Shown piece by piece: positions 27,666 to 43,305 of a stretch of 64,000 bases of DNA. Position numbers and translations under genes: made by a program. Origin of the DNA: a virus. Numbering within the stretch: the stretch's first letter is position 1; every line of letters begins with the position of its first letter. The DNA lies in the IMG/VR virus record IMGVR_UViG_3300023296_001674. One strand, 5' to 3'. The notes beneath the pieces are model-generated. The model made no database searches. It saw only the letters and a program-made list of their open reading frames with translations, and had not been told where the DNA came from.

Positions 27666-28096
27666 GTAGTTAAAAATTTTTCACGATCTACTGACAATTG
27701 ATTAGATTCTTGTCTGAAATAATCAGCATATATTTGATCTGTAAATGAAAACATGTATGCTGGTTTTCTATTAGGCATGAATGATTTACTCGTAAATCGA
27801 TCATCGTTGCTAGGTTCTACATATCCCCATTGAACGGTATAATCTGCACAACTATAGTTTAATGAATCCAATAATATATCATAACATCTATCCGTGCCAT
27901 GCCCAAATCTTAATACATGAACTTCATTATGTGGGCGTGATACGATAGATTCCATTTCGTCTAACGCAACTCTATTACCACCACCATTGGATTCACAACC
28001 ATGATTAACACAAAATATTAAATCATGCCCATCTTTAGAGGTTTTTTCCATGTCTGATTCGCCACATATAGGGCAATTTACCCATTCTAACATCAC
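27662..28096 (-). CDS. zinc-ribbon protein (CPICGES...CVNHGC)
   Basis: 144-aa ORF; TTGACA-N16-TATACT leftward promoter at about 28110-28140. Confidence 0.5.
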   Translation of the reverse strand: MMLEWVNCPICGESDMEKTSKDGHDLIFCVNHGCESNGGGNRVALDEMESIVSRPHNEVHVLRFGHGTDRCYDILLDSLNYSCADYTVQWGYVEPSNDDRFTSKSFMPNRKPAYMFSFTDQIYADYFRQESNQLSVDREKFLTT

Positions 28097-28278
28097 AACA
28101 ATCTCCTTTTATATGCTATCGATTAAACAGTATAACATTTATTGCGCTAATGTCAATACCCTATGTCGTTAAGTGATCGTAGTTGTGAGTTTTGGATGAC
28201 GTTTTAAATCATCAACCCACTGGTCAGAACTAATAGCCCCAGTATCATCATATAATGTTCGATATAATCTAGTTTTAA

Positions 28279-28524
28279 TCATGTGTACATCGTTTTCATA
28301 AGTAATGGATCATTATCGGTATGGACGCAGTACTCTTCAAGTGAACATACATGGTTATTAAAATACCAAAACACACTTTCTACTTGACCGGTTTCATAAT
28401 AATATATTTGTGCTGGACCATCATTTCTTTGATATACGCTCGAGTCGCCGTCGCGATACCACGCTTCTCCACTGAGGTTTCCTGACATATAATGTGAACG
28501 TAATATATATGGAGTTTTAATCAT
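28279..28524 (-). CDS. DGPA/WY-NG repeat family paralogue
   Basis: [15 protein letters not shown]...; ends LLMKTMYT. Confidence 0.55.
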
Positions 28525-28946
28525 ATGTACATCATCTTCATAAATAATTCATCATTGTTCGTTCGATGACACCATATACGAAACGAACATGTTTCATCAT
28601 CAAGATAATATGTATATTGCGTTTTTCCCGAAAGGTAATAATTTATAATTGCTGGTCCGTCAATTCTGTGATGTTGCCCTTCTAAACACCATTGCTCTGT
28701 ATCTATGTTGCCTCTTTTATCATATCGTATTATAGCAGGACCATTGTCTTTATGAATGCAATCATTATTAACCCACACACGACTAGATATATCACCGTTA
28801 TGATTATAATATATAGCAGCAGGACCATCTGATCTATGATGTATATTATTTTCATACCATCTCATGCAATATAATTTACCCGAATGATAATATTCGTTTT
28901 CTGTGCGTATTGTCATTTGAACATCATCGTCATAAGAATGGGACAA
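28521..28946 (-). CDS. DGPA/WY-NG repeat family paralogue (3 repeats)
   Basis: [30 protein letters not shown] and [12 protein letters not shown]; ends LFMKMMYI. Confidence 0.55.
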
Positions 28947-29155
28947 TTATCGGTTTTTCTGCACCATGTATTAAAATCATATACCGATCCTTCATAATAC
29001 CACAACACATAATTAATGTTCCCATAATAAGTATAATATATCAAAGCAGGACCATCATCCCTATGTAATATACCAATTTCGCTACTGTATTCATCGCGCA
29101 AATGTTTTTCACCCTCATATACTGAATGTAATTTCGAAAGCATAGCTGTCTCCAA
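28913..29155 (-). CDS. DGPA/WY-NG repeat family paralogue
   Basis: [16 protein letters not shown]; ends ILMTMMFK. Confidence 0.5.
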
Positions 29156-29200
29156 TCAATTTAGATCATTATATCACATTATCAAATAGTGTCAATCAAA

Positions 29201-29470
29201 TCATAATGATATCATCGTCATAAGCAATCGACAGTTATTGGTTTTCTTACACCAATCATTTAAAGAAAGATACCATCCATCAAAAAACCAAGAAATATCG
29301 GTAATATTATTATTTTCATCAAAATGTATAATAGCGGGGCCATCATTTCTATGAAAATCACCAAATTTATTAAAATAACATACATGCGTCAATCTGCCGT
29401 CTTTTTTATAAAAAGATTGCACAGGATGCACGGGGTTTTGATCATAATCTAATTCTGGTGGTAATTTCAT
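29201..29470 (-). CDS. DGPA/WY-NG repeat family paralogue
   Basis: HRNDGPAIIHFDENNN; ends LLMTMISL. Confidence 0.5.
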   Translation of the reverse strand: MKLPPELDYDQNPVHPVQSFYKKDGRLTHVCYFNKFGDFHRNDGPAIIHFDENNNITDISWFFDGWYLSLNDWCKKTNNCRLLMTMISL

Positions 29471-29805
29471 GTATACATCAATTTCATAAACAATGGACAG
29501 TTATTGGTTTCTGTACACCAGTCTTTTAAAGTATAATTTTCTCCATTTAAATACCAATTCAATTCTTCGATGTTTCCATTTATGTCATAAAATATTTGTG
29601 CAGGACCGTCAATCCTATGCCACCCACACGATGTATACCACAGTTCGCGCTTCACATCACCTGCCATGTAATACAGTATATTAGATGGATGACCATCATC
29701 GCGGATTAGCCACGATTTTGACCTCAAATCACCAGATTGATAATACTCTAATTCAGGATTTGTCATATCTGAATCCATGTTATTTGAACTGATTGATTGT
29801 ATCAT
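29467..29805 (-). CDS. DGPA/WY-NG repeat family paralogue
   Basis: HRIDGPAQIFYDINGN; ends LFMKLMYT. Confidence 0.55.
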   Translation of the reverse strand: MIQSISSNNMDSDMTNPELEYYQSGDLRSKSWLIRDDGHPSNILYYMAGDVKRELWYTSCGWHRIDGPAQIFYDINGNIEELNWYLNGENYTLKDWCTETNNCPLFMKLMYT

Positions 29806-30017
29806 CTAATTCAAGTGAAATCTCTTCCAATGCCTCAAGGACAAGATACCGAATAATTGCGTCATCAGCCGTAGCCAACTCGCGAATAGACTTAATGATT
29901 GTGCTTTGTAATGCTTCAATATCATTCGTGTAATTAATAGCCATAATAAATCCCTTCAATAAATTTATTTAATATAACAACAGTATAACACTTAATCAAC
30001 AAGCGTCAAGCAAATCC

Positions 30018-30308
30018 TTATTTCAAAATAGGCGTTAACTCAGCCCATTCGGCTTTTATTTCCGCGCCATCACTAAATCTAACATTATAAAACATTTTTT
30101 TACAATCATGTGATTGACCGCCAGCCCATTTATCAATCAACCTAACTATTTCTTGTGTAGCAACATGTATTGCTTTATCGCCAGGATTGTATACATGCAC
30201 ATTCGTTGGTGAAGCCAAAGCACATGCTATATGATTGTCTCTAACAGAATCTGCTATTAATAATACAATAAACACAATTACAAATAGCACAATTATTTTT
30301 TCTTTCAT
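30018..30308 (-). CDS. secreted/membrane-anchored small protein
   Basis: N-terminal hydrophobic segment. Confidence 0.5.
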   Translation of the reverse strand: MKEKIIVLFVIVFIVLLIADSVRDNHIACALASPTNVHVYNPGDKAIHVATQEIVRLIDKWAGGQSHDCKKMFYNVRFSDGAEIKAEWAELTPILK

Positions 30309-30323
30309 AACATCATCCTTTTT

Positions 30324-30596
30324 TTATTCTTCCCACATTAACTTAAATCCAACGATGTCACTTTCTTCTTCAAACCAAAATACAATGTTCTCAACATATT
30401 TAAATGTGGGATCAACTGTGAAATAGTAATACCAATCACCCGCTAAATTATCATAACACCAATCGTGCATATCTACCGGAATGTTTAGAGGATAAGGAAT
30501 AGAATACTTATTGCACCATCCCAATATTTTATCTATACGAATAGGGTCTCTGTCTGATGATAAATCGCATATATATGAATAAGACAACGTTGTCAA
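30324..30596 (-). CDS. small protein of the AFKLRW family (ends DIVGFKLMWEE)
   Basis: Shared C-terminal motif. Confidence 0.5.
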   Translation of the reverse strand: MTTLSYSYICDLSSDRDPIRIDKILGWCNKYSIPYPLNIPVDMHDWCYDNLAGDWYYYFTVDPTFKYVENIVFWFEEESDIVGFKLMWEE

Positions 30597-30885
30597 GCAA
30601 CAACCCTCCCAACAACAGCCAATGTTTTGACTTCCGTCATATAATGACCTCCCAACTGTAATATTGCAATAGTTCCTGACTGCTGTATGCGCCTTATGAA
30701 ATACTTATGCCATACATATCTATTGTGACTGAAATCACGCGGTCTTCTTAACGTGTTTAATATTACACCGAGATCTAAATCAGCATTGCGTATCTTGTAA
30801 AAACTACCAAACGTCGGAAATATACCACCTGCGTGAGTGTCAGTTCCAGATGATCGTTTTAATGTATCCGCCAGTATAACCATTT

Positions 30886-31482
30886 CTACCAACAAACCCA
30901 AATATTAATAACACCTTCGTTGCCATCATCGTCATCTTCGGCTAAGTGCTTGAATGTGTCGTGCCATACTTGCATGATTTCACGCTGCCAATCTTCTGTC
31001 TCTTCATCACAGCAATCCATCGATACACTAACCCAATTATATGTATCATTGCGAAATCTACCTTCGTCATCGACGCAGTGTTTCATTTGCCAATGCCAAA
31101 AATCCATATATGGACGTTTCTTGAATTTATCATCGGCGCAATCTTTTTCATATTCTTTGAACCAAATCTGTGATGACCCACGATCCTTGCCATCTGAATC
31201 AATCTGTGGATAACCTTTCTTATCATGCCAATCATTGAAATCGCCAGTACCTGGAAAGAAATGCCGACCAGCATCACGTTGTTTATAACCAAGAATCTTA
31301 TCTATTGCTCTCGTCATTTCCATAAAGTCATAAAACGTTACGGTTGTTTTGGTTATTTCAACCATTAAAAAATACCCGTTTAAGTTTTGTGCGATAATTA
31401 GATAATTCACTCTGCACCAAATTTTCACTGGTTTGCGGATAAATGCCGTGCGCCGTTTGTGTGTATTCACCGCTGCGCACAC
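30886..31482 (-). CDS. hypothetical Trp/Asp-rich protein (true start may be the internal Met near 31365)
   Basis: ORF; overlaps 31358..31573 at its 5' end. Confidence 0.45.
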   Translation of the reverse strand: MCAAVNTHKRRTAFIRKPVKIWCRVNYLIIAQNLNGYFLMVEITKTTVTFYDFMEMTRAIDKILGYKQRDAGRHFFPGTGDFNDWHDKKGYPQIDSDGKDRGSSQIWFKEYEKDCADDKFKKRPYMDFWHWQMKHCVDDEGRFRNDTYNWVSVSMDCCDEETEDWQREIMQVWHDTFKHLAEDDDDGNEGVINIWVCW

Positions 31483-31573
31483 ATGCTAAAACTCGTTCAC
31501 GCATATCAGGAAACGGCACTAAATCAACCCACGCCTTTGTGCCCGGTTTATAAAAGAACTTCAATTTTTCCAT
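31358..31573 (-). CDS. small hypothetical protein
   Basis: Leftward promoter TTGACT-N16-TATACT at 31752-31779. Confidence 0.4.
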   Translation of the reverse strand: MEKLKFFYKPGTKAWVDLVPFPDMRERVLACVRSGEYTQTAHGIYPQTSENLVQSELSNYRTKLKRVFFNG

Positions 31574-31751
31574 ACTAATCTCCTATTTTAAATGTTTGGA
31601 ACCAATCGCAATCAATACCGGCTTGTGTGCCGCCAATAACGCTTTTATAATTGGTACATGCGGCACCTTCGGTAAATCAGGCACCAACCGCATTACTTCA
31701 AAATATGGTACGATTTTTCGCATAATAATTCCTTCCTATAAGTGAACCTAC

Positions 31752-31779
31752 AGTATAACACTTATTCAGGTTGAGTCAA
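31752..31779 (-). promoter_or_regulatory. leftward sigma70-like promoter (reverse complement TTGACT-N16-TATACT)
   Basis: The motif acagtataacacttattca...gtcaag recurs before several leftward genes. Confidence 0.5.
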
Positions 31780-31978
31780 GCACCGCGATATCCACATCAT
31801 ACATATGAACCATCTCGAACAACGATTCTTGTGAAATTTTATGAAACTCAACTTTCTTGCTAAATTCATCCATCATAAAACCATACCACATAGATTTAAA
31901 ATCATAATGTAACACAAACCGCAATCCATCATACCCATCAAGAAATGTTATATTATAATCAATTACATTCATGTCCAC
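31766..31978 (-). CDS. small hypothetical protein
   Basis: ORF. Confidence 0.35.
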   Translation of the reverse strand: MDMNVIDYNITFLDGYDGLRFVLHYDFKSMWYGFMMDEFSKKVEFHKISQESLFEMVHMYDVDIAVLDST

Positions 31979-32370
31979 ATCAATTTAATAGCCATACAAT
32001 CTTCTATGCTATATGGCGCAGTCATTTCGTTATCAAGCAACCACGCCTCTACCTCATGGGTTGATAAATCAACACCACACAAATACCAAATTTCAGATAT
32101 ATCTTTACCTGATCTATAATTGTAGATCAGTGCAGGACCATTCAATCTATGTAGTATACCATTATCGTGCCATGATACCCTAACGGCTTCACCATGACTA
32201 TTAAATTCACATCGTGTGGGTGCACCAGAATCCCGATGTAATTTACCATACTTATACCATTTACGCACCTCTGGTATTTTATTATTGCTATCTAGAAATT
32301 CTGTAATAATTTGATATTTTTTTGTAGGGTCCGCTTGATGTTTTGGAAGCCTACCGCCAGAATCTCTCAT
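31969..32370 (-). CDS. DGPA/WY-NG repeat family paralogue with an AFKLRW-like C-terminus (CMAIKLMWT)
   Basis: HRDSGAPTRCEF...HRLNGPALIYNY. Confidence 0.5.
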   Translation of the reverse strand: MRDSGGRLPKHQADPTKKYQIITEFLDSNNKIPEVRKWYKYGKLHRDSGAPTRCEFNSHGEAVRVSWHDNGILHRLNGPALIYNYRSGKDISEIWYLCGVDLSTHEVEAWLLDNEMTAPYSIEDCMAIKLMWT

Positions 32371-32373
32371 TAA

Positions 32374-32739
32374 CTATCCTTTTAACTTACCCAACGCCAT
32401 TTCTACAAATAACTCCGCATCATCAAGAACTTTAAACACAAACACCGGATTGCTTGTCCATACATTACCCTTAACTATATCACCCGAATATGCACCCGAT
32501 ACCGGATATGCTAACTCTGCATATTCATCCGTGTAAATCATATCAACACTATAATCAATTGAATAACTGTCACACCAATAAATCATATTATTTATCGCCG
32601 CATATTTGTCATCACCATAACAAAAAGAACAAATCGATACAACATATCCACCATGTAATATATTAACAGCCTTCTTATATAGATTCTCATACCTGACATC
32701 ATGTGCCAAATAACTTGTTATTATACTACTTCCATTCAT
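32374..32739 (-). CDS. hypothetical protein
   Basis: 121-aa ORF. Confidence 0.45.
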   Translation of the reverse strand: MNGSSIITSYLAHDVRYENLYKKAVNILHGGYVVSICSFCYGDDKYAAINNMIYWCDSYSIDYSVDMIYTDEYAELAYPVSGAYSGDIVKGNVWTSNPVFVFKVLDDAELFVEMALGKLKG

Positions 32740-32947
32740 TTAAATAAACACTTAGCCATATCACTCATTAATTTCGCCCCCTATAACTACATCACTATTA
32801 ACCATACCACTTAATGACACCTGTGACAAATCACTGATACTTATAAAAAAATCAATACCAGCAAACGATGCATGATTATACGTCCAACCATTGGCATTAT
32901 TATCAATAAATACTGTCAAATCGCCGACGGAGTTATATTCACATATC

Positions 32948-33178
32948 TCAATCATGTGGCGTAGATTCTTTATATAATTTCATATATACATACTTCGTTA
33001 AACTGCGACAACTATATCCATCATGTATATAACCCTCGCTTTCCTTGATATACTCTAACATACCAGGCGATTCAATCTGCATGGAACCCAACAAGCCCAT
33101 CTTATATAAATCCATTATTCTATTCGTATCCATAACACCAACATAGCACAGTAAGGCACTTATTACAATATAAGCCAT
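32948..33178 (-). CDS. small hypothetical protein
   Basis: ORF. Confidence 0.35.
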   Translation of the reverse strand: MAYIVISALLCYVGVMDTNRIMDLYKMGLLGSMQIESPGMLEYIKESEGYIHDGYSCRSLTKYVYMKLYKESTPHD

Positions 33179-33206
33179 AGGTTTAAGGAAAATATTTCTA
33201 TGGGTA

Positions 33207-33464
33207 TCAGGCCACGGTTAAAATGTCCACACTTACGTCATCAATCGTATATATTTCAACCAATTTTTTCTGTGACATAACCCGCTTCAACACACGCAAA
33301 AATGATCCATGAAAATAAGTGACACCCAACATTTGAGTCTCATTATTTTCATCTATAAACATGAATTCATAAAATTTACTATTAAACGACGATCTCTTGT
33401 AACTGATGAACCGAACTACCGCCATGAAACACTTACCCCTTGAATGGTGTCTTAATGATCTCAA
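33207..33464 (-). CDS. small basic hypothetical protein
   Basis: ORF. Confidence 0.4.
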   Translation of the reverse strand: MRSLRHHSRGKCFMAVVRFISYKRSSFNSKFYEFMFIDENNETQMLGVTYFHGSFLRVLKRVMSQKKLVEIYTIDDVSVDILTVA

Positions 33465-33568
33465 TCGTGCGAATATATATCACAATAAGAACACTCCGCC
33501 TATCAGTAAAAACAATCCCAATACAACACCCATCATCCCTATAACAATCAAACACTTGGCTTTATCAC

Positions 33569-33916
33569 TCATTCTTTGTCCCTCCGGCGTTTGATATCAT
33601 CTTGAATTTCAACTTCTAATTCACGTATTCGTTCAACATAATAAGCATCAATGTTTCCCTTATATACCAAATGCTCAGTTATAACAACAGAACACACTTT
33701 CAAAATATCAGGAGGGAAATCTTTGTAATTCTTCCTTAACATAGATGACTTACTATGATCATGTTTATTAAAAAACAAACTTTTACAAAAATTTTGTTGG
33801 TTTGATTTAGGAAATATATCAGCGTTAGCAGTAGAAGAAAATACCACCACCATAAACACCACCGCCAGCAAACATACAATTATAAATATCCTGTGCCTCA
33901 TCATCAAGATGTGCAA
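33569..33916 (-). CDS. secreted small protein (signal peptide)
   Basis: IFIIVCLLAVVFMVVVFSSTANA signal. Confidence 0.5.
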   Translation of the reverse strand: MHILMMRHRIFIIVCLLAVVFMVVVFSSTANADIFPKSNQQNFCKSLFFNKHDHSKSSMLRKNYKDFPPDILKVCSVVITEHLVYKGNIDAYYVERIRELEVEIQDDIKRRRDKE

Positions 33917-34146
33917 TACGCTCCTTGATTAACAAATCTATATCAATTACTAACTGTTTAGCTAATAATTCCGCCGCATCTATTTCATCATCTGTCATTA
34001 ATTATCCCCTTATTGTGGTTCACCAAGAACCATAACCCCCACCACTACACAAACAAACAAAACTATCAACCAAAAACCCATATTAATTTCCTCATTTTTA
34101 TTTCTTTTTTAGTTAAACCCACCGCAATTATAAATCGATCTGTATA

Positions 34147-34380
34147 TTAATCTGGTCTTGGTTTATCCGCATACGGCGAAATATCAATTCGAATTAACCC
34201 ATCAGTAGCTACTACATGCTGAAATAAATAACCATCAGCCGTATACCGAGTTAATCGTTCTGGGGTAAATCCATCAACACGACGACAAAACCATGCCGTA
34301 GCAGCTACACATCCCATTCTTCGTTTTTTGGATTTCCATTCCAATATTGCCTCATCTATGCACATATTAATTTCCTCCAT
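34147..34380 (-). CDS. small hypothetical protein
   Basis: Leftward promoter TTGACA-N17-TATTAT at about 34385-34415. Confidence 0.45.
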   Translation of the reverse strand: MEEINMCIDEAILEWKSKKRRMGCVAATAWFCRRVDGFTPERLTRYTADGYLFQHVVATDGLIRIDISPYADKPRPD

Positions 34381-34403
34381 ATAATATCATAATAACACCA
34401 TGG

Positions 34404-34478
34404 GACAGTTATGTCAAGAATTATAGATTGGCTTAAATCAGCCATTTCAATCGTGGTCTGCCGTGGGGAGGAGACGGT
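34404..34478 (+). repeat. direct repeat copy 1 (about 73 bp) flanking the inverted gene island
   Basis: About 85% identical to 36097-36169 (gacagttat..attatagattggcttaaa.cagccatt.caatc...ccgtgggg.gagac.gtt). Confidence 0.65.
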
Positions 34479-34505
34479 TGACATCACCAATAACTGTGAT
34501 ATAAT
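34478..34505 (+). promoter_or_regulatory. sigma70-like promoter TTGACA-N16-TATAAT for the island genes
   Basis: ggTTGACAtcaccaataactgtgaTATAAT. Confidence 0.6.
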
Positions 34506-34516
34506 AATCTAAACAG

Positions 34517-34759
34517 TTGGAGACAGTTATGACAGAACATCAAATATATCAATTTCGTTCCGGCGAACCCCGTAAAGAAATATTTACCAATGAACAGTTT
34601 AAACACCATAGCATTGATGGCCCCTCTGTCATATATTATGATAAAAATGGACTTATACGATATACTGAATGGTGGATCGATGGGAAACAATTGCATATTC
34701 AAGATTGGTGCGAACTTACTAATAACGATCCCCTACTTATGAAAGTGAAATACTCATGA
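34517..34759 (+). CDS. DGPA/WY-NG repeat family paralogue
   Basis: HHSIDGPSVIYYDKNG; ends LLMKVKYS. Confidence 0.55.
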   Translation: METVMTEHQIYQFRSGEPRKEIFTNEQFKHHSIDGPSVIYYDKNGLIRYTEWWIDGKQLHIQDWCELTNNDPLLMKVKYS

Positions 34760-35022
34760 ACAGACCAGACAAATCAACACAATTCATAATATATTACAAT
34801 AATGGCGATGGATCAAAAGATACCGACGTCATCGCTAATATCGAATGGCGCAATCAACTCGGCGAACTCCATAATAGCAGCGGACCAGCAAAATTGCTAC
34901 ACAAAACAGACGGAACAGAATTTAGGAAACTTTGGTGCATCCACGGTGTCGCATTTAGTTTCAATGATTGGTGTAAAAAAACCAATAACTGTCCCACACT
35001 TATGATGATGATGTATACATGA
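34756..35022 (+). CDS. DGPA/WY-NG repeat family paralogue
   Basis: HNSSGPAKLLHKTDG; ends TLMMMMYT. Confidence 0.5.
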   Translation: MNRPDKSTQFIIYYNNGDGSKDTDVIANIEWRNQLGELHNSSGPAKLLHKTDGTEFRKLWCIHGVAFSFNDWCKKTNNCPTLMMMMYT

Positions 35023-35252
35023 TAAAACCTATATTAATATCACATTATTGCGATAACGGCATACTTAAATCAGAACGTTGGATGCGGGATGACAAATGCC
35101 ACAATACAACCGGACCCGCTATAATTCGATATTATTCCAACGGTTTAATATATAATATTTGTTGGTATCTAAACGGAGAACAATGCGATATACATCATTG
35201 GTGTAGAAAAACCGGTAACGATCCCCTACTTATGAAAATGATGTACTCATGA
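35019..35252 (+). CDS. DGPA/WY-NG repeat family paralogue
   Basis: HNTTGPAIIRYYSNG; ends LLMKMMYS. Confidence 0.55.
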   Translation: MIKPILISHYCDNGILKSERWMRDDKCHNTTGPAIIRYYSNGLIYNICWYLNGEQCDIHHWCRKTGNDPLLMKMMYS

Positions 35253-35527
35253 CATCATTCAATAACGATGAAAAATATATGGTATTATATAATAAACCCA
35301 TACGCGAAGCATCATATCATGATGAAACCGATATACTCAAATCAGAAATTTGGCGAGTTGGTGGACTGTTCCATAAAAATAACGGGCCAGCTATAATCCG
35401 ATATTATACCGACGGATCAATATATAATGTAAATTGGTGCCTCAACGGCATTAAATTTGATTTAGAACTATGGTGCCGTAGAACCGATAACGATCCGTTG
35501 CTTATGAAAATGATGTATACAGCATAA
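35249..35527 (+). CDS. DGPA/WY-NG repeat family paralogue
   Basis: [15 protein letters not shown]; ends LLMKMMYTA. Confidence 0.55.
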   Translation: MTSFNNDEKYMVLYNKPIREASYHDETDILKSEIWRVGGLFHKNNGPAIIRYYTDGSIYNVNWCLNGIKFDLELWCRRTDNDPLLMKMMYTA

Positions 35528-35688
35528 AAACAATTATGCTATAATAAAACCATGATGCTAGATGACGAACAAAAACACATAATTCAACTATTCGACATGG
35601 GTATGCGTGCAACCATAGAATACTTATATCCACCATTAAAAGAAAACCCCCATCCACCAAAAAAAATTAGATAAATGGTATACAACAA

Positions 35689-35967
35689 ATGAATGACATC
35701 GTAGATATTAAAACAGGAAAACCCGTGCTAGACGAAATCAAGTCTAAAGCAGAAGCATCCAAAAAACGCGCAGCAGGAAAACATAACTTCTACGTGAAAG
35801 CACGTATCAGCACAGAAACTATTAAAGTATTAAAAGAAGCGTTGATGACCAGTTCAGTATGCGACGATAACGGTAACGCACTTATCCCATGGACTAAAGA
35901 ATTAATTGATGAATTAACCAGTGGTGTCACCGACCCCGGACCTAAAAATAAAAACCGCGATTCTTAA
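35689..35967 (+). CDS. small hypothetical protein
   Basis: ORF in the island. Confidence 0.45.
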   Translation: MNDIVDIKTGKPVLDEIKSKAEASKKRAAGKHNFYVKARISTETIKVLKEALMTSSVCDDNGNALIPWTKELIDELTSGVTDPGPKNKNRDS

Positions 35968-36096
35968 TATAAATCGCGCCCTATCCACGCAAATATCGCC
36001 GTAATCGACCAACGCAATACATAAAGACCACTATTATTACTATACTAAAATCCATTATAATATCCTTTAATTGTTCCCACCAGTATACGACAGTAA

Positions 36097-36169
36097 GACA
36101 GTTATTGCAATATTATAGATTGGCTTAAAACAGCCATTCCAATCACATCTACCGTGGGGGGAGACAGTT
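36097..36169 (+). repeat. direct repeat copy 2 flanking the island
   Basis: Matches 34404-34478. Confidence 0.65.
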
Positions 36170-36931
36170 ATTTTTATTACCCTTTGACATATTGTCTTTA
36201 GCCCATAATGGCTGAAGATTTGTGTAATGCATCGCTTTATGCTGTTCATTTATATCCGATAAATCAAATGATGATAATGGAATAATATGATCTATATGCC
36301 AACCATCAGTAGCCCAGTTATCCCAAGACATCCCCACCGTAAATTGATTCTCTAAATGTTCCTTTAATGTAGCAATGTCCGTTCCAATCAATTTTAACGC
36401 AGATTTAGTCTTCTTAACCCCGCTATTACGTAAATACTTACCTAACGCATTTCTAAGATTAATACGCAGTTTAAAAAGTGGATCATTAGCATAGCGTTCC
36501 CTTCGAAGTTTATTCCGTATATCCCTTGTTTTACTAGCATATTTTTTGTCCCATCCAGACTTCAATTGTTTAAACTTTGAAGTTTTTGCGTAAGGAACCC
36601 TCCATATATCCCATGAACACTGCTTACAATACGTTTTTTTATCATAATGACACTTGCCAGAAAAATCACTCGGAAAACTATCTAAATCTTTTATAGTATC
36701 ACATTTACGACATTTTCTCTTTCCTTCGCTTTGTAGTATATGTAACTCTGATACATACTTTTTTTCTTCCATCAACTTTTCAGGGTCTTTGCTATTCTTT
36801 ATACTTACACACTGCTTGCAACTTCCCCTTAAATATGAAGGATGATCCCGTATACCTGCTGATGCATAACTGTCTAATGATAATTCCCGATTGCATGTTT
36901 TACATTTTTTCATTCGATTACAATAACACAC
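36149..36931 (-). CDS. HNH homing endonuclease with N-terminal CxxC zinc-finger repeats
   Basis: WHIDHIIPLSSF...NLQPLWAKDNMSKGNK. Confidence 0.75.
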   Translation of the reverse strand: MCYCNRMKKCKTCNRELSLDSYASAGIRDHPSYLRGSCKQCVSIKNSKDPEKLMEEKKYVSELHILQSEGKRKCRKCDTIKDLDSFPSDFSGKCHYDKKTYCKQCSWDIWRVPYAKTSKFKQLKSGWDKKYASKTRDIRNKLRRERYANDPLFKLRINLRNALGKYLRNSGVKKTKSALKLIGTDIATLKEHLENQFTVGMSWDNWATDGWHIDHIIPLSSFDLSDINEQHKAMHYTNLQPLWAKDNMSKGNKNNCLPPR

Positions 36932-36940
36932 TGGAGACAG

Positions 36941-37288
36941 TTATGTCAATCGGTCTAGGGGCTGACAGTTATACAGCGATGGTATATTTTGTTCAGTGCG
37001 ATTGCGTGATTTGTTATATGCAGTATCAAATTCTTTGATTACTTGTTCTAATGACATATCACCAAAATTATACCATTCACCACGTACTTGTATATGCCTA
37101 AAATAAAAATGCATCCAACGCTCTGCCCACTTACGAGTATACGTGTTGTGGACTTTGGATATACTTAGTTTTTCTGGATTGCCTGTTTGTAATGTGCTTA
37201 ATCTTTTAATAGATGATTTGGCTTCACCTATTTTATATAAACTGGTGCTACCATTACGAATAAGATATACATCACCAAATGCGATCAT
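36941..37288 (-). CDS. T5orf172 / GIY-YIG-like domain protein
   Basis: VYLIRNGSTSLYKIGEAKSSIKRLSTLQTGNP. Confidence 0.55.
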   Translation of the reverse strand: MIAFGDVYLIRNGSTSLYKIGEAKSSIKRLSTLQTGNPEKLSISKVHNTYTRKWAERWMHFYFRHIQVRGEWYNFGDMSLEQVIKEFDTAYNKSRNRTEQNIPSLYNCQPLDRLT

Positions 37289-37336
37289 TGGATATTCCTT
37301 CCAATCAATGTAGATACAGTATAACAGTTATTCAAA

Positions 37337-38647
37337 TTATGTCAATTGGTTTAGGGATAAATCAACTATTCTATTAACCATATTTTGTATATCAGAATCT
37401 ATTACATGAAACAAATACTCGTTTTCTAAATCTACATCTTTAGTTTTTTTAAGTAAGCCATCGTCAAAGGCTGATTGATTGCGCATAGATTTATAACCAC
37501 CAACACGCTCACGCATGTCATCAATCAACCTAGTGGTATCAAGGATACCATCTTCATAATATAGATTGATACCAAGATTATTCAAATATGTGTATATATC
37601 AACATCGATTGTTAACAAATCCATATAACCATCATACTTACGCCAATGATAGTTAAGTTGACGGTTGAAGTATAAATCATACTTACCGCTATCAATATCA
37701 TTATACACTTGTAATAAATCTTTATGTAAATCATTTAAATTACACGACGTTATTCTTTCAAATATATCTTTATCAAATGTATTATCATCCATATTATGCA
37801 ATGGTGACATTTTATGATATATGGTGCATATAACATTACCAGTACTACCATCAACAGATATATTATTGACATTGAAAAGAGGTGCACAATGTCTGTAATA
37901 TGTCCGCAAATAAACAGTTATTTTATTGTCTTTGATTTCTATTCTAAAAAATGATGAAATTTTAAATAATTTACATAAATCATTATATATACATAGCATA
38001 TCAGCCGACATATTGGTGAACAAAGCATTAGTAAGATCAATGTCACACTTACGGATATAATTCCAAATGATTTGATTGTTATCTGATGTTAAATCATACA
38101 CGGCTGTATATTTTTTATCAGTCATAATAAAAATAGATGAATATAACCCATCGTTGTGGTTTAGGATGTTTTGTACATTTTTCATTATAGTAATAATTTT
38201 ATTTGATACAATATCGCGTGCTTGATGTAATAATTTATTATGTTTTCTAAATAGATCGCGTATACGAATGTATTCTATTTCTTCATTGGTTTTTTCTTTA
38301 TAAGTCCACTTTCCTGTAATTTTATGTTTATGTAATGATTTTTCCATGGCTATTCGTTCAGGTATGGATGCATTTAAAACTTTTTTAACAGCAATAGACA
38401 GCAATCCTGCATTAGACACATGAAACCATTCCTTTACTTTGATATCTTCGATGTGAAAATGAGAAAGTTGTGACTGTATTGCTTTTTCTGTTATTAGTGC
38501 ATCTTTTTCTGATCCAGTATATATTACTTTAAATGTGTCACCGGGACGATAATGATTATTACTTCTACTTTCTGGATTTGTGGTGATACCTGGAGTGACT
38601 TGTATTCCATTAGGATATTTTGTTTCATTGATGTATACGTAATGCAT
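37337..38647 (-). CDS. protein with an N-terminal T5orf172/GIY-YIG-like domain
   Basis: MHYVYINETKYPNGIQVTPGITTNPESR...; 436 aa. Confidence 0.55.
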   Translation of the reverse strand: MHYVYINETKYPNGIQVTPGITTNPESRSNNHYRPGDTFKVIYTGSEKDALITEKAIQSQLSHFHIEDIKVKEWFHVSNAGLLSIAVKKVLNASIPERIAMEKSLHKHKITGKWTYKEKTNEEIEYIRIRDLFRKHNKLLHQARDIVSNKIITIMKNVQNILNHNDGLYSSIFIMTDKKYTAVYDLTSDNNQIIWNYIRKCDIDLTNALFTNMSADMLCIYNDLCKLFKISSFFRIEIKDNKITVYLRTYYRHCAPLFNVNNISVDGSTGNVICTIYHKMSPLHNMDDNTFDKDIFERITSCNLNDLHKDLLQVYNDIDSGKYDLYFNRQLNYHWRKYDGYMDLLTIDVDIYTYLNNLGINLYYEDGILDTTRLIDDMRERVGGYKSMRNQSAFDDGLLKKTKDVDLENEYLFHVIDSDIQNMVNRIVDLSLNQLT

Positions 38648-38755: not shown

Positions 38756-39052
38756 TTATTTGGATGACGTTTCTTTTGTCATCGGATATTCATGCGATAA
38801 ATCAATAATTGATCCAGTATCGCCATCAGCCGTTATATAGGTTATCATATAAACTTCTTCATTAGGTCTATGAACAACATCATATGGAATAATATCATCT
38901 ACCGTGACAAATTGACGATCTTCACCAGTACCAACCAATATCCTATCACCAGGTTTATATGGTGTATTAAATAACGATTCCATTAATCCATCAAAAAAAT
39001 CATTCAACTCATTAGTTGACATATCCAGTAAACATTCATTGCCATCTTCCAT
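38756..39052 (-). CDS. small acidic hypothetical protein
   Basis: ORF with its own leftward promoter at 39081-39109. Confidence 0.45.
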   Translation of the reverse strand: MEDGNECLLDMSTNELNDFFDGLMESLFNTPYKPGDRILVGTGEDRQFVTVDDIIPYDVVHRPNEEVYMITYITADGDTGSIIDLSHEYPMTKETSSK

Positions 39053-39238: not shown

Positions 39239-40261
39239 ATGACTAATGCACTCACAACTGAAGATTTCATTCAACGTTCTATAGAAGCGCATAAGCCTTA
39301 TCACGAACATTATGATTATAGCAAAGCGATCTATATCAAAACAACTAAAAAAATAACAATTACATGTAAGTTTCATGGCGACTTCGAAGTTATTGCTGCT
39401 ACCCATCTAGGTGGTGCACATTGCAATAAGTGTAATAAAATGATTAATTCCATAATAAAAGAAGAAAATATTAGATTGCAAAAAATCGCTAACAATTATG
39501 AAATACAAGAAAAAGCAAAGGATTTCTACAACCGTGTTGATGAACGATTTGGTAGATTCAATTATAGTAAGAGTGTATTTGAAAATATGTCAACACCCAT
39601 TATAATAAAATGCACTTGGCATGGCGAATTTGAACAAACACCAAGTGTTCATTTAAGCCACCTTACAGGCTGTCCTGAGTGTAATCAGTTAGTTGCCAAG
39701 TGGCGTAACGATAGAACTACCCCAGCGTTCATTAAAAAGGCGAGAAAGGTGCATGGATGGCTATATGAATATGATAAAGTAGAATTTATTGATAATAAAA
39801 CACCCATTACTATCATTTGCCCAGACCATGGTGTATTCAACCAAACACCATCGAATCACTTAAGGGGTGGAGGATGCCAAAAATGTGGCGGAAGGTTTGG
39901 GGCGAAAGAAACTGAATGGATAGAATATATGGAAGAACGTATAGGTTATTCACTGGTCACCGACCACACTACCTTAAAGATGGCTGATGGCAAAGTATAC
40001 TTCCCTGATGCATATGATCCTGACACTAAAACAGTATATGAATTCGATGGTGATTACTACCATGGCAATCCAAATAGATATGCACCTGATCAAACGAACT
40101 ATACATCAAAGAAAACCATGGGTGAGCTATATGAAGCCACTCTCAAGAAAAAATCGGATTTAGAAACCAATGGCTATACTGTTTTGTCCATATGGGAAAG
40201 CGAATGGGATGCATTCAAGACGACTTTACCTGATAGATTTCCTAATATCAAAGCAGCATAA
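39239..40261 (+). CDS. homing-endonuclease-like protein: 3 zinc-ribbon repeats plus a C-terminal Vsr/PD-(D/E)xK-like nuclease domain
   Basis: C(K/T)xHGxF..Q(T)PS.HL...C..C repeated three times; C-terminal VYEFDGDYYHGNP...VLSIWESEWD. Confidence 0.55.
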   Translation: MTNALTTEDFIQRSIEAHKPYHEHYDYSKAIYIKTTKKITITCKFHGDFEVIAATHLGGAHCNKCNKMINSIIKEENIRLQKIANNYEIQEKAKDFYNRVDERFGRFNYSKSVFENMSTPIIIKCTWHGEFEQTPSVHLSHLTGCPECNQLVAKWRNDRTTPAFIKKARKVHGWLYEYDKVEFIDNKTPITIICPDHGVFNQTPSNHLRGGGCQKCGGRFGAKETEWIEYMEERIGYSLVTDHTTLKMADGKVYFPDAYDPDTKTVYEFDGDYYHGNPNRYAPDQTNYTSKKTMGELYEATLKKKSDLETNGYTVLSIWESEWDAFKTTLPDRFPNIKAA

Positions 40262-40435
40262 AAAATAAGCCAAATAAAAAATTTATCGCGGACGAGAAGT
40301 CACCCTCATACCCGTACTGTAATAGTATAACGATCCTATAAGTGTAAGGTAACAGCCACATGTGAATATATTCCTAGGAATTTTTTTCTATGTGTCATAG
40401 GAATATATACTCACGTATAAATTATAGGTAAAAAA

Positions 40436-40874
40436 TCACAGTGTGACAGAATAAGTGCGCCAACTTTCATCACAGTGTGAATGAAACTGGAAAAATCATC
40501 ACAGTGTGTGCATTTTGGAACACGTGTTTTGCTCACAGTGTGATATTTACCCTCACAGTGTGATTTTTTATCCTCACAGTGTGATATTTGGAACGCTTAT
40601 CTGCTCACAGTGTGATATTTACCCTCACAGTGTGATTTTTTATCCTCACAGTGTGATATTTACCCTCACAGTGTGATATTTACCCTCACAGTGTGATTTT
40701 TTATCCTCACAGTGTGATATTTGGAACGCTTATCTGCTCACAGTGTGATTTTTTATCCTCACAGTGTGATATTTACCCTCACAGTGTGATTTTTTATCCT
40801 CACAGTGTGATATTTACCCTCACAGTGTGATTTTTTATCCTCACAGTGTGATATTTGGAACACACACTGTGATG
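40436..40874 (+). repeat. array of 18 direct repeats of the near-palindrome TCACAGTGTGA (units of 20, 21 or 31 bp) plus one inverted copy; candidate origin or protein-binding array
   Basis: Alternating unit types A (..atatttaccc), B (..attttttatcc) and C (..atatttggaacgcttatctgc); no spacers. Confidence 0.85.
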
Positions 40875-41134
40875 AATGTGAATTATTGAATAACTGTCTC
40901 CACCATGTTCCATAACTGTCTCCACACTAGATATAGTGGGTGTTAATGTGTAATATAGTTGCGCATTATAATTTCGTCATACACTCACAAAGTAGAACAC
41001 TTATAGAACAAAGGTAGTTTTGAATTTTCCATAACAGATGTTATGCGATTCTAACGGGGTAAACAGTGAACATAGGTGGAACATTTGTATCATACATAGT
41101 CCATATTGGTTTGATATGCATTATATATAATACA

Positions 41135-41163
41135 TTGTCATAAGTGTTATACTGTGATATAAT
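41135..41163 (+). promoter_or_regulatory. promoter TTGTCA-N17-TATAAT
   Basis: Upstream of 41169. Confidence 0.45.
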
Positions 41164-41168
41164 GTATC

Positions 41169-41384
41169 ATGGGATTAATACTGAATAGAATAGCGTATAG
41201 CAAAAATAATTGTTATAGGATAAATTACACATATAATGGAGATATGGTGTCCAATGATGGATGGGTTGAGATGTCTTTATTTACGTTTGGCAGGCAAGTT
41301 GAACACAATTGGATAACTATGGATATGTTATTGGATATGATCAACATTGATTATGAAGTATCTATAAGTGTGGCACAGTTATGA
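41169..41384 (+). CDS. small protein of the ...ISVAQL family
   Basis: Ends VSISVAQL; stop overlaps the repeat TGTGGCACAGTTATGAG. Confidence 0.5.
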   Translation: MGLILNRIAYSKNNCYRINYTYNGDMVSNDGWVEMSLFTFGRQVEHNWITMDMLLDMINIDYEVSISVAQL

Positions 41385-41722
41385 GAGATTTAACGGGTGA
41401 GATATTAAAAAGCATAGAGGAATTGATTAATACTACATTACCGGATACACCGGAACGCAAAAGGGTTTCTGCACTTGGTGATGAAATACTTGATACATTA
41501 AGAATTCATCATGATATTGTAACGACGGTATATATAGTGAAGACGTTATATATAAAGAAAGATAATGGTAAGTATATTGTCATCAATAAAATGTTTAATG
41601 GTACAATATGTATATATAAGTATGACACTATTCTTGACATAGTTAAGTTTGGTAAATTTGGATTAGATGAACTCATGAAAATGGATAACACATATGAAGA
41701 TTCGGTTGTGGCACAGTTATGA
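41381..41722 (+). CDS. small protein ending ...SVVAQL
   Basis: Start and stop both lie inside the junction repeat. Confidence 0.5.
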   Translation: MRDLTGEILKSIEELINTTLPDTPERKRVSALGDEILDTLRIHHDIVTTVYIVKTLYIKKDNGKYIVINKMFNGTICIYKYDTILDIVKFGKFGLDELMKMDNTYEDSVVAQL

Positions 41723-41871
41723 GACTACTTAATGAAGATCAATTGGAAGAACTTATGGATGCGATGATCAGGGATATGGTGGAGTATGAACTTACGGGTA
41801 TTGAGGTATTGTTTTGGATGATAGAAGAAATACCACAACTTGAAGCTATGGTATATATACGCAATGAATGA
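41719..41871 (+). CDS. small acidic protein
   Basis: Starts at the ATG of junction repeat copy 41706-41722. Confidence 0.4.
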   Translation: MRLLNEDQLEELMDAMIRDMVEYELTGIEVLFWMIEEIPQLEAMVYIRNE

Positions 41872-42166
41872 AGATGATCGATGGATGATACAGAAGACGA
41901 TGATACGGAAGGTTCCATTACCGGTTAAGCGTCGTGTTATGCCGACAGTTATTGCGAATAACGTAGTTGGTGTATCACCGATGGCTCCACCGGTTAAGTC
42001 TATTCATACGATGCGGTTTGAGGATTACAGTGATTTAGAGATGGAAGAGGTTTTATACCGGTTGATTTTTGGCGGGACGGGACATTATTATCAGGTATGG
42101 TTATTCAATGAAGTTATTGATAATGATATGATGGTTAACAGGGATGTATCAATTGGCAACGTTTGA
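41864..42166 (+). CDS. hypothetical protein
   Basis: ATGAATGA overlap with the upstream ORF. Confidence 0.4.
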   Translation: MNEDDRWMIQKTMIRKVPLPVKRRVMPTVIANNVVGVSPMAPPVKSIHTMRFEDYSDLEMEEVLYRLIFGGTGHYYQVWLFNEVIDNDMMVNRDVSIGNV

Positions 42167-42413
42167 TGTTAGTAAGTTTAATAAGTTTAGGGTGCCAGTT
42201 GATAACCATAAAGGTATGTTACATTCTGGTATAAATGTGTATACGAACCCGTATATAAGATTGTTATCATCGCGCAATGCGCCGATTGAAGATTTAATAA
42301 TAGTGATATTGAGAAATTCTATTGGTGTTGGTCAAGAAGCATTATTTAAACATATAAATCCACCGGTATTGGATAGCCATGTTACTATAGAACCCATAGG
42401 TGTTGATGAATAG
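42144..42413 (+). CDS. hypothetical protein
   Basis: ORF ends in TAG. Confidence 0.45.
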   Translation: MYQLATFDVSKFNKFRVPVDNHKGMLHSGINVYTNPYIRLLSSRNAPIEDLIIVILRNSIGVGQEALFKHINPPVLDSHVTIEPIGVDE

Positions 42414-42510
42414 GTCTTATGGGTTTCATAGGTCTTGAGCCATAGGTTTCATAGCATAGGTGCTATGGGTTTCATAGCATAGGTGCTATGGGTTTCATAG
42501 GAATAAAGCT
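42411..42510 (+). repeat. tandem CATAGG-containing repeats (two perfect 23-bp units, tagcataggtgctatgggtttca, plus degenerate copies)
   Basis: Hairpin-forming CCATAGGTGCTATGG also forms a terminator at 58898-58921. Confidence 0.6.
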
Positions 42511-42520
42511 ATAGGAGTTA

Positions 42521-42832
42521 TTGATGGCAATAAATGATAGCAAATTACGCGGGGTGATTAAGTATACTATAGTTACGGATGATGGAGGGAAACCGATGAC
42601 AAAGTTATTAGAAACTACTTGGGGAGAAGCCAAACGTGCATTAATGGAGGATCGTCGTTACACTGTCACTTATAAAGGATTTTCACATGTTGGTGACACT
42701 TATATAGATGCAATGTTACAATTAGTTCGATGGCGCAGTTTGGCGCGTGATGCTACTAATATGCATGAAGAACTGTTTGATATATTGAGTTCATATATAA
42801 TTGAACGGGATGTATCGATAAGTGTCTTATAG
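42521..42832 (+). CDS. hypothetical protein ending ...VSISVL
   Basis: 103-aa ORF. Confidence 0.5.
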   Translation: MMAINDSKLRGVIKYTIVTDDGGKPMTKLLETTWGEAKRALMEDRRYTVTYKGFSHVGDTYIDAMLQLVRWRSLARDATNMHEELFDILSSYIIERDVSISVL

Positions 42833-43028: not shown

Positions 43029-43029
43029 A

Positions 43030-43125
43030 AATCCGTTCTTGTTTTGTTCTGAATTTTTATTTGTTCTTGTTTTGTTCACGATCTGTTCTATGTTCTACTT
43101 TTGTTCTTGTTTTGTTCTAATTTCC
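43030..43125 (+). repeat. three copies of GTTCTTGTTTTGTTC within a GTTCT-rich tract
   Basis: ccgttcttgttttgttc / ttgttcttgttttgttc / ttgttcttgttttgttc. Confidence 0.5.
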
Positions 43126-43300: not shown

Positions 43301-43305
43301 TAAGA

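Follow-up and report, generated by a model that had tools for sequence, protein, structure and literature searches.

Two direct repeats around a small cluster of rightward genes in a 570-kb phage, with a plausible origin as duplicated early-promoter sequence

The window analysed here, a stretch of 64,000 nucleotides from IMG/VR record IMGVR_UViG_3300023296_001674, belongs to a metagenomic phage contig of 570,549 bp. It contains a leftward gene block of ~26 kb (13160 to 39052), within which lies a rightward cluster of six called ORFs (76, 88, 77, 92, 40 and 92 aa), four of them paralogous, flanked by two direct repeats, R1 and R2 (Table 1). The cluster looks embedded in the leftward block because nuclease genes lie there. 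An earlier note on this DNA had described the same setting; its placement of the cluster within a 26-kb leftward block and its four paralogues stand, but its count of five rightward genes becomes six ORFs.

Table 1. Coordinates of features at and around the repeat-flanked cluster; promoter, terminator and mini-ORF entries are predictions.
Feature	Position	Strand	Description
72-aa gene	34147..34365	-	First gene of leftward block
Leftward R1 promoter (candidate)	34389..34417	-	TTGACA-17-TATTAT, TG-extended -10, 11/12 consensus; upstream of 72-aa gene
R1	34404..34478		Minus-strand order: degenerate ATAACTGTCTCC-like motif, ~45-nt core, AT-rich stretch, -35 TTGACA + TAACTGTC
P_A (candidate promoter)	34478..34531	+	TTGACA-16-TATAAT at 34478-34505, 12/12 consensus; leader; translation start GGAGACAGTTATG
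Four overlapping small paralogues (76, 88, 77, 92 aa)	34529..35527	+	MORN_2-like beta-hairpin repeat family
40-aa ORF	35552..35674	+	47 aa in population variant with one A fewer in homopolymer run
92-aa gene	35689..35967	+	Sole cluster gene conserved in relative, 77% aa
Predicted intrinsic terminator	35956..35978	-	8-bp stem then GTTTTTATTT; at convergent junction
Possible 24-aa hydrophobic mini-ORF MDFSIVIIVVFMYCVGRLRRYLRG	35981..36055	-	AAGGA ribosome-binding site; between R2 promoter and terminator
R2 leftward promoter-like site	36082..36110	-	TTGCAA-17-TATACT, 9/12 consensus, partly within R2
R2	36097..36169		Architecture as R1; right end codes last 7 codons of HNH ORF
Free-standing HNH endonuclease gene	36149..36913	-	GGAGACAGTTAT at 36160-36171 and 36933-36944
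Two T5orf172/MUG113-domain genes (115 aa, 436 aa)	36941..38647	-	Low G+C, no strand skew
98-aa gene	38756..39052	-	Own promoter 39109-39081; stop codon inside ATAACTGTCTC
Second HNH-type endonuclease gene	39239..40261	+	DUF723 / phrog_559
Iteron array	40429..40887		Unit CTCACAGTGTGAT(A/T)TTT, ~20 nt
Conserved non-coding block N	40925..41135		Start of rightward block B

Megablast of the 33–38 kb region against 50,697 phage records returned no match, and the best identity of rIIA to deposited phages was only ~30% by tblastn; thus, the phage has no annotated relative. Exact look-ups of three window proteins return only the same phage population. The same arrangement occurs on five long contigs from different samples and is matched by two short contigs at 827/828 and 1203/1203 bases, which excludes an artefact of assembly. 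An R1 x R2 crossover would remove 1.69 kb, and the excision through the repeats that had been suggested is possible in principle; but there is no sign of its occurrence, with no excision or deletion variant among the five long public contigs (0/5), all contigs with the flanking genes also carrying the cluster.

Alignment of R1 and R2 with MAFFT gives ~83–85% identity (~63 of 76 columns; three indels of 1 nt each; identical runs of up to 18 nt), which, together with nhmmer, bears out the two direct repeats of ~85% identity first reported at these positions. A 33-nt core common to both copies is 94% identical. At up to 3 mismatches this core is found in the 64-kb window only at R1 and R2, and none of 100 shuffles yielded any match; a profile built from the two copies similarly recovers only R1 and R2 (nhmmer, E 6e-28 and 6e-24), the next match having E 7.7. 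The core has no match in IMG/VR. The reported overlap of the second copy with the 3' end of the HNH gene is likewise confirmed and consists of the last 7 codons, including the stop (36149–36169). Homology between the repeats ends on one side inside the promoter spacer, just past TAACTGTC, and on the other at a copy of the ATAACTGTC(TCC) motif, and each repeat reads as the upstream half of a sigma-70-type promoter region directed leftward. The ~45-nt core holds a 5-bp stem-loop, TGGCT/AGCCA, kept in both copies upstream of the -35. Looser members of this cassette family lie at 33120–33250 and 37290–37420, and R1 and R2 appear as the closest pair within a looser family of leftward promoter cassettes. 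These promoters are mosaic: the R1 core resembles the 39109 promoter, with the -35-to-(-10) core of the leftward R1 promoter close to the promoter at 39109–39081, and the upstream part of R1 matches R2.

Promoters were called as matches to the sigma-70 consensus and are candidates only. The divergent promoters that the earlier note assigned to copy 1 are indeed present back-to-back, but each is only partly inside the repeat, which includes only the -35 and 8 nt of spacer of the leftward promoter and on whose last base P_A begins. The agreement of the R2 promoter-like site with the consensus is at a level common by chance. A degenerate copy of P_A inside the HNH 3' end, and homology of the possible 24-aa mini-ORF to a 21-aa hydrophobic mini-ORF, were both judged too weak to claim. 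Motif GACAGTTAT occurs 16 times against 0.71 expected. The 9–12-nt motif, ATAACTGTC(TCC) in its minus-strand form and GGAGACAGTTAT in its plus-strand form, appears to belong to the early-promoter spacer and, read from the opposite strand, to the translation start of first genes. Within the nuclease block, copies of the motif occur at each end of the HNH gene and of the 98-aa gene and at the left end of T5orf172, with the variant forms AACAGTTAT and GACATAATT at the T5orf172/436-aa junction.

Turning to the cluster genes, the family of the four paralogues has seven further members on the minus strand of the window. None of the four has a Pfam match, the curated threshold of PF07661 not being reached. 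A profile of ten paralogues matches 18,193 cluster representatives, many as multi-repeat matches, and among five top matches that were scanned, two pass the PF07661 cut-off and one more falls below it. An AF2 model of a paralogue comprises beta-hairpins and two helices, for which a fold search gave no significant PDB match. These similarities suggest that the four paralogues are related to the MORN_2 family, of which they are at most candidate members. The 40-aa ORF has no detectable homologue; kinship with small genes a1–a4 of a relative was dropped, as the similarity was not significant.

Among the flanking genes, the 72-aa gene has homologues (57–76% aa identity) in many unrelated, non-syntenic phage contigs; residues C19, H50, D61 and D67 of its product are invariant, and a fold search with its model found no significant PDB match. 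The HNH protein matches phrog_1035 ("endonuclease VII", 9e-19), and its Pfam HNH match is below the cut-off (15.8 versus 21.4 bits). In an alignment with 12 homologues, residues H206, D208, H209, N232 and N241 are invariant, and on this evidence the gene has the residues of the HNH beta-beta-alpha-metal motif. Its C-terminal NCLPPR tail is encoded by R2 and is missing from most of the aligned homologues.

The cumulative GC-skew has its minimum near 39.0–39.6 kb, ~1.5 kb left of the iteron array, and the iteron region is a probable replication origin. On its other side, block N adjoins the iterons in the window and a P_A-type divergent promoter in two relatives; in the relative L016 a homologous P_A-type cassette adjoins block N. 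The cluster itself could be compared with one informative relative, on contigs of 2–4 kb (L007/L008). This relative keeps P_A, the leader, the first codons ATGACAGA and the last gene of the cluster, and its equivalent iteron array starts 4 nt past the stop of a 91-aa gene, the homologue of the 92-aa gene. It has no R repeats, MORN-like paralogues, HNH or T5orf172 genes, and its internal cluster genes differ; in this one relative the HNH gene is missing between the 91-aa gene and the iterons. The parts that differ from the window are the cluster-internal cargo and a 4.3-kb block of nuclease genes between the cluster and the iterons. Homology of the window to L007 and L016 has its boundaries at the P_A -35 and at block N. 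Past ~nt 840, L008 is bacterial-looking and may be chimeric.

Because the relative conserves P_A with its translation start and has iterons directly after the last gene, the cluster frame is an old one linked to the iterons, and it is the internal genes and the nuclease block that vary. The R element is carried by no relative. In the presence/absence comparison that the earlier note called for, the frame (P_A and the last gene) is kept, the repeats are absent and the internal genes are replaced. Because the iteron core is palindromic and one 55-nt match runs in reverse, the orientation of the array relative to the cluster in the relative supports a rearrangement only and no defined inversion.

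On balance, we think it somewhat probable that R1 and R2, which flank an old transcription unit, stem from duplication of the upstream portion of a leftward early-promoter cassette, by short-homology recombination or gene conversion at the motif, within a hyperplastic, nuclease-rich early region. One R copy would have arisen from the other at ATAACTGTC(TCC)/GGAGACAGTTAT by either process. The unit between the repeats runs from P_A through the cargo genes and the 92-aa gene towards the iterons, and its frame is conserved in the relative. Judging from consensus matches, R1 would now lie between back-to-back promoters, one directed leftward to the 72-aa gene and the other, P_A, rightward into the cluster, and R2 would have the HNH stop codon on one side and, on the other, a weaker leftward promoter for the 24-aa mini-ORF; the predicted minus-strand terminator past this mini-ORF would keep leftward read-through out of the cluster. 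On this reading the cluster itself is no mobile cassette; the elements able to move are promoter cassettes, the cargo genes behind them and free-standing endonuclease genes. Of the recombination origin proposed earlier, we retain the part concerning the repeats, which are most simply a recombination product, but not the cluster as an inserted piece.

A clearly less probable alternative is that R is a functional cis-element under selection, such as an operator or activator site, a UP-like region or an attenuator, which co-regulates two leftward promoters and flanks the cluster incidentally; the 83–85% identity could then stem from selection on a common element instead of youth. Both copies have the same position and orientation relative to the leftward -35, and their core contains overlapping palindromes, GATTGG..CCAATC and TGGCT..AGCCA, conserved between R1 and R2. 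We also count in its support that a known RNA is unlikely for R, because no Rfam family matches at E <= 1 across 34.0–41.5 kb. However, binding sites are typically far shorter than the 73 nt over which the copies are 83–85% identical, the core is missing from other leftward promoters, and no relative carries the element. With no mapped promoter upstream of the R1 core, a terminator there would have nothing to terminate.

The first reading of the locus, in which the cluster was inserted into a single ancestral R between the 72-aa and HNH genes, duplicating R and remaining re-excisable by R1 x R2, we now regard as improbable. The direct repeats do flank the cluster exactly, the cluster has its own consensus promoter with a terminator at its far end, and its deletion would leave a sensible leftward operon (HNH-R-72aa). 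Its gene composition is also unlike that of the neighbouring early genes: each of the six, though coded on the opposite strand, shows the C>G bias at third positions that the plus strand has around the cluster, with a coding-strand skew of -0.20 to -0.52 against mostly +0.1 to +0.7 in those neighbours, and G3/C3 within the MORN_2-like family is 40/74 in the cluster versus 129/80 for members in the leftward block (Fisher p = 5e-6). Such skew depends on the region and is near zero for rightward genes at 0–13 kb. This strand bias fits long residence in the present orientation and argues, indirectly, against recent inversion or arrival; foreign origin of the cluster genes could mimic the pattern.

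Against insertion, the relative ties the cluster frame to the iterons with neither R nor HNH, and 73–75 bp far exceeds known target-site duplications. No ORF of the cluster matches a transposase or integrase, its ends have no terminal inverted repeats, no recombinase lies within or adjoining it, and no empty site is seen among the five long contigs. The cluster-internal paralogues are 31–57% identical to each other and equally far from the leftward copies, versus 83–85% for the non-coding repeats; the repeats therefore look younger than the cluster. The conserved frame without repeats, the third-position bias and a paralogue divergence exceeding that of the repeats together leave unsupported the view of the 1.6-kb cluster as an inserted or inverted piece.

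We consider it just as doubtful that the 12-nt motif GGAGACAGTTAT/ATAACTGTCTCC is a dedicated recombination signal, perhaps cut or bound by the HNH or T5orf172 proteins, by which promoter-plus-gene cassettes with the motif at their borders, R and the cargo behind P_A among them, would be actively shuffled round the iteron-marked origin with R1 x R2 as one frozen product. The motif reads as a translation start on one strand and as a promoter spacer or gene end on the other.

Slightly less probable still is that R with GGAGACAGTTAT forms the homing site of the HNH enzyme, R2 being occupied and R1 a paralogous empty site, with the duplication stemming from nuclease-driven repair. Copies of GGAGACAGTTAT lie at or within a few codons of both HNH ORF ends, and the gene abuts R2; its family is huge and dispersed (>7,600 homologues, best non-self identity 54%), and a relative has no HNH gene at the locus. 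However, P_A, to the right of R1, shares no homology with the sequence beyond HNH, and the bracketing motif is a promoter/translation-start consensus found at many gene boundaries. The earlier suggestion of homing-endonuclease assistance is apt in that the region is rich in genes of this type, but nothing ties the HNH enzyme to movement of the cluster.

Finally, transposable elements are recognized by a transposase gene, terminal inverted repeats and a short 2–15 bp duplication, and integrative elements by a site-specific recombinase and identical core att repeats; we rejected the former for want of transposase and inverted repeats and for a repeat that is 73–75 bp long and diverged, and the latter for want of a recombinase and for R1/R2 identity runs of at most 18 nt interrupted by indels.

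We thus lean towards the repeats being duplicated upstream copies of an early promoter in a recombination-prone stretch rich in selfish nucleases, not the scars of a recent excisable island. For annotation, this would mean that the repeats are not to be labelled att sites or mobile-element ends and that the rightward cluster is an old origin-proximal operon with variable cargo genes. If true, T4-type shuffling of regulatory cassettes by short homology extends to the early region of a very distant phage of 570 kb, where it would act beside a probable replication origin. The finding is modest and largely ordinary, a useful example of the gain and exchange of ORFan genes by huge phages, with no new principle.

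Several known systems resemble parts of this locus. Morons are autonomous promoter-gene-terminator units in phage genomes, and the cluster shares with them its own consensus promoter, an end terminator and a composition unlike its neighbours. It differs in that the terminator faces incoming leftward transcription instead of the cluster's own transcript, and in that the iteron-tied frame, conserved in a relative, is no add-on. Free-standing homing endonuclease genes, for example T4 seg and mob, sit between phage genes. Similarly, the interval from the cluster to the iterons holds four or five nuclease-type genes here; most seem to be equipped with a promoter-like site of their own, two are of atypical composition, and they are missing from the same place in one relative. 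These genes account for the embedded look of the cluster but leave the 75-nt repeats unaccounted for.

The closest comparison is with the promoter-early stem-loop (PeSL) regulatory cassettes of T4-type phages (Arbiol et al. 2010, PMC2839356; Comeau et al. 2014, PMC4122927), many copies of which are dispersed in hyperplastic regions beside ORFans, recombining neighbours yielding mini-circles or deletions (PMC2839356, PMC4122927). In contrast, only two close R copies occur in 64 kb, in a 570-kb phage whose rIIA identity to deposited phages is only ~30%. The near-identical part of R lies upstream of the -35 and is not a whole promoter-terminator unit, and its TGGCT/AGCCA stem-loop is weak (5 bp), has no U-tract and was missed by the terminator scan, RNA folds of R1 and R2 on both strands giving none that was significant (z-scores -0.5 to -2.2); it is thus at most a candidate for the terminator half of a PeSL. 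As for the strong early promoter, R1 matches the consensus at 11/12 positions and R2 at only 9/12. Like PeSLs, R1 and R2 are short intergenic cassettes centred on strong sigma-70-type early promoters and are concentrated in a hyperplastic region with small ORFan and free-standing endonuclease genes, and as direct copies they flank a small gene set that they could loop out. Differences between related genomes begin and end at cassettes in both systems: here, cargo behind the conserved P_A/start cassette is replaced, and the R1/R2 homology ends in the spacer. By this analogy, the reading we mildly favour is short-homology shuffling at conserved promoter motifs, as with the PeSL cassettes of T4-type phages.

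The two direct repeats recognized in the earlier note, R1 and R2, are ~83–85% identical when aligned; three single-base indels separate them, and no identical stretch exceeds 18 nt. Their 33-nt core is 94% identical, and a search tolerating three mismatches detects it at no other position in the window (0 matches in shuffles); a profile built from both copies likewise retrieves no third copy there. Both share a minus-strand layout: a ATAACTGTCTCC-like motif, a ~45-nt segment with overlapping palindromes and a 5-bp stem-loop, an AT-rich stretch, and a -35 hexamer with TAACTGTC, directly after which the homology ends, within the promoter spacer. The downstream spacer and -10 of R1 are instead similar to the promoter at 39109–39081, and these promoters are therefore mosaics. 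Because the leftward intergenic regions 33120–33250 and 37290–37420 align loosely with the repeat, R1 and R2 appear to be the closest pair within a wider cassette family. RNA folds of the repeats are unremarkable, and an Rfam search at E ≤ 1 gave no family.

Coordinates of features in and around the rightward cluster
Feature	Position	Strand	Description
R1	34404–34478		repeat copy 1
R2	36097–36169		repeat copy 2
Rightward promoter	34478–34505	+	TTGACA-16-TATAAT, perfect; starts at last base of R1
Leftward promoter	34417–34389	-	TTGACA-17-TATTAT; -35 inside R1
Promoter-like site in R2		leftward	TTGCAA-17-TATACT; weaker
Intrinsic terminator	35978–35956	-	at convergent junction
Candidate 24-aa ORF	35981–36055	-	hydrophobic; AAGGA ribosome-binding site; read directly from sequence
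21-aa ORF	34026–34091	-	hydrophobic
72-aa protein gene	34147–34365	-
Genes right of cluster			HNH endonuclease; two T5orf172/MUG113 proteins; 98-aa protein; second HNH-type gene
Polymorphic A-run	35659–35666		147–153 in the one-A-shorter population variant (L003)
Iteron array	40429–40887		~17 iterons
Block N	40925–41135		non-coding; start of rightward gene block B
Suppressor-type tRNA	53959–54032	+	anticodon CTA, reading UAG
Tandem repeats	42387–42531, 58900–58953		CATAGGT/CTATGGG type, between early genes

A promoter scan recovered both divergent promoters anticipated at R1. We infer that the predicted R1-associated promoter drives the 72-aa gene, and the predicted rightward promoter P_A the six genes of the cluster. 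The candidate 24-aa ORF lies between the terminator and the R2 promoter-like site. This ORF and the 21-aa ORF have good ribosome-binding sites, are situated downstream of the R2 and R1 promoters, respectively, and may encode membrane mini-proteins; their mutual likeness is too weak to call homology. Across the -10 of P_A (34478–34531) and of its counterpart in a relative (L007 2504–2556), the promoter spacer is repeated in inverted form at the translation start (ATAACTGT...ACAGTTAT in the window; AATAAGTGTTCC...GGAACACTTAT in L007). Both arms are altered in concert between the two phages, which points to an operator bound by a dimeric early-promoter regulator.

A 9-mer, GACAGTTAT (ATAACTGTC on the opposite strand), is over-represented, with 16 occurrences where 0.71 are expected. 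It is found immediately 3' of the -35 in leftward promoters; on the plus strand as the spacer that separates ribosome-binding site and ATG in first genes (GGAGACAGTTATG at 34519); and in TNNC codons close to the 3' end of several paralogs. The motif also marks most gene boundaries in the leftward nuclease block: the HNH and 98-aa genes have it at either end and T5orf172 at its left end, with only variants at the T5orf172/436-aa junction. The T5orf172 and 98-aa genes stop at a TAA within the motif, and each end of the HNH ORF has GGAGACAGTTAT (36160–36171 and 36933–36944) either right at it or no more than a few codons away.

The cluster between the repeats is real but comprises six ORFs (76, 88, 77, 92, 40, and 92 aa) rather than the five genes first counted. 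It is embedded, as described, in a 26-kb leftward block, since minus-strand ORFs span 13160 to 39052. R2 does overlap the HNH 3' end, covering the last seven codons and encoding a C-terminal NCLPPR tail that lies beyond the end of most of 12 homologs. Four cluster genes belong to an 11-member paralog family in the window (31–57% identical; seven members on the minus strand), within which they form no tight clade. The family profile matched 18,193 cluster representatives, often with many repeats per protein; of five top matches scanned, two clear the Pfam cut-off for MORN_2 and another is a sub-threshold match to it. None of the four cluster paralogs reaches Pfam thresholds. An AF2 model of a paralog (pLDDT 87) comprises beta-hairpins and two C-terminal helices, with no significant PDB match. 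The 92-aa and 40-aa products gave no informative match.

Left of R1, the 72-aa protein has 57–76% identical homologs in many unrelated phage contigs, in one case adjoining terminase on a 62-kb contig, whereas rIIA of the same phage is only ~30% identical to anything. Its invariant C19, H50, D61, and D67 hint at a minimal papain/transglutaminase-like Cys-His-Asp fold; its AF2 model (pLDDT 87) has no significant PDB match.

The 570,549-bp ENA contig ERZ27315719:k141_202852 contains the whole window unchanged, and four further contigs of 20 kb to 1 Mb hold near-identical copies; the longest carrying contig in the protein database is 570,750 bp. Among the genes of ERZ27315719:k141_202852 are rIIA, rIIB, and an NAD-dependent ligase gene. 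A comparison with 50,697 deposited phages gave no nucleotide match to it, and its rIIA reaches only ~30% identity to theirs; the phage is therefore very large and poorly sampled. The suppressor-type tRNA (ARAGORN; Rfam tRNA 65 bits) may mean that amber codons are read through, or stop codons recoded, in part of the phage.

The earlier note read the region as an inserted island, excisable through the repeats and possibly HNH-assisted. Within the population, the 72-aa, 92-aa, and HNH proteins lie on the same five long contigs with unchanged neighbors, and no empty-site variant is on record among them. The sole polymorphism observed is a one-base change in the A-run; with one A fewer, the 40-aa ORF becomes 47 aa and overlaps the start of the 92-aa gene.

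Among 5.8 billion sequences, the 92-aa protein encoded by the last cluster gene has one other cluster only, 77% identical, on contigs L007 (3.7 kb) and L008 (2.3 kb) of a diverged relative. There, a counterpart of P_A, comprising a homologous TTGACA promoter, leader, and start codons (ATGACAGA), precedes four small genes unrelated to the paralogs or the 40-aa ORF; a 91-aa gene follows, and 4 nt past its stop begins an iteron array (TCCACACTGTGAA...) similar to that of the window. The frame of P_A, 92-aa gene, and iterons is thus kept, R and the paralogs are absent, and no nuclease gene separates the 91-aa gene from the iterons. On its promoter side, L007 carries block N and the genes of window 40925–43355 in reverse orientation; in the window these lie right of the iterons. 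A second relative, L016, found via a conserved 22-mer of block N, has a P_A-type divergent promoter and start adjoining that block. From these comparisons, we conclude that the frame is ancestral and that its cargo genes can be exchanged while the promoter/start cassette ahead of them is conserved. What sets the window lineage apart is ~4.3 kb of nuclease-type genes between cluster and iterons, together with a rearrangement by which N and block B, formerly on the promoter side, came to lie on the iteron side.

Immediately after block N, L016 (264–911) carries an HNH-like endonuclease gene that the window lacks there, a further nuclease presence/absence difference in the region; it also holds a long expanded array of the CATAGGT/CTATGGG-type repeats (1320–1513). 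Past its iterons, L008 (840–2276) continues in higher-GC sequence with a Bacteroidota-like leucyl-tRNA synthetase; the scaffold is chimeric, or else the phage carries the synthetase. The window's own iterons (CTCACAGTGTGAT[A/T]TTT) are dense, with a period of ~20 nt; the cumulative GC-skew minimum lies ~1.5 kb to their left (near 39.0–39.6 kb), skew is clearly positive just past them, and the leftward and rightward early blocks diverge over 34–41 kb. The array is probably a replication origin or regulator-binding array.

Strand bias bears on age. Third codon positions of early genes in the leftward block and at the beginning of block B mostly favor G over C on the coding strand (skew ~+0.1 to +0.7), and those of all six cluster genes favor C over G (-0.20 to -0.52); cluster and leftward neighbors therefore share a plus-strand bias. 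For a single protein family, G3/C3 is 40/74 among cluster members and 129/80 among leftward-block members (Fisher p = 5e-6). Because the bias tracks the DNA strand and not the reading direction, it suggests that the cluster has long resided in its present orientation. The skew is regional, being ~zero for rightward genes at 0–13 kb, and a foreign origin of the cluster genes could mimic the pattern. Taken with the old divergence of the paralogs, the skew suggests that the non-coding repeats, at 83–85% identity, postdate the cluster between them. More broadly, the coding-strand third-position G>C skew of early genes is mostly positive at 18900–34400 and 41400–46000 (up to +0.7), strongest near the 34–41 kb center, ~zero by rIIA/rIIB, and -0.31 in a 1330-aa leftward gene (13160–17152); transcription or replication are candidate causes.

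The island reading has partial support only: the repeats stand, but the ancestral frame and the lack of an empty-site variant among the five long contigs count against insertion and excision. The best explanation of the repeats is a promoter-upstream cassette that became duplicated. We propose that the duplicate arose when the phage's conserved promoter/translation-start motif served as short homology for recombination, in a hyperplastic region with many endonuclease genes. Although strict PeSL membership is not claimed, because the stem-loop/terminator half is weak in R and the phage is not placed among T4-type phages, the same logic has been described for the PeSL cassettes of those phages (PMC2839356, PMC4122927).
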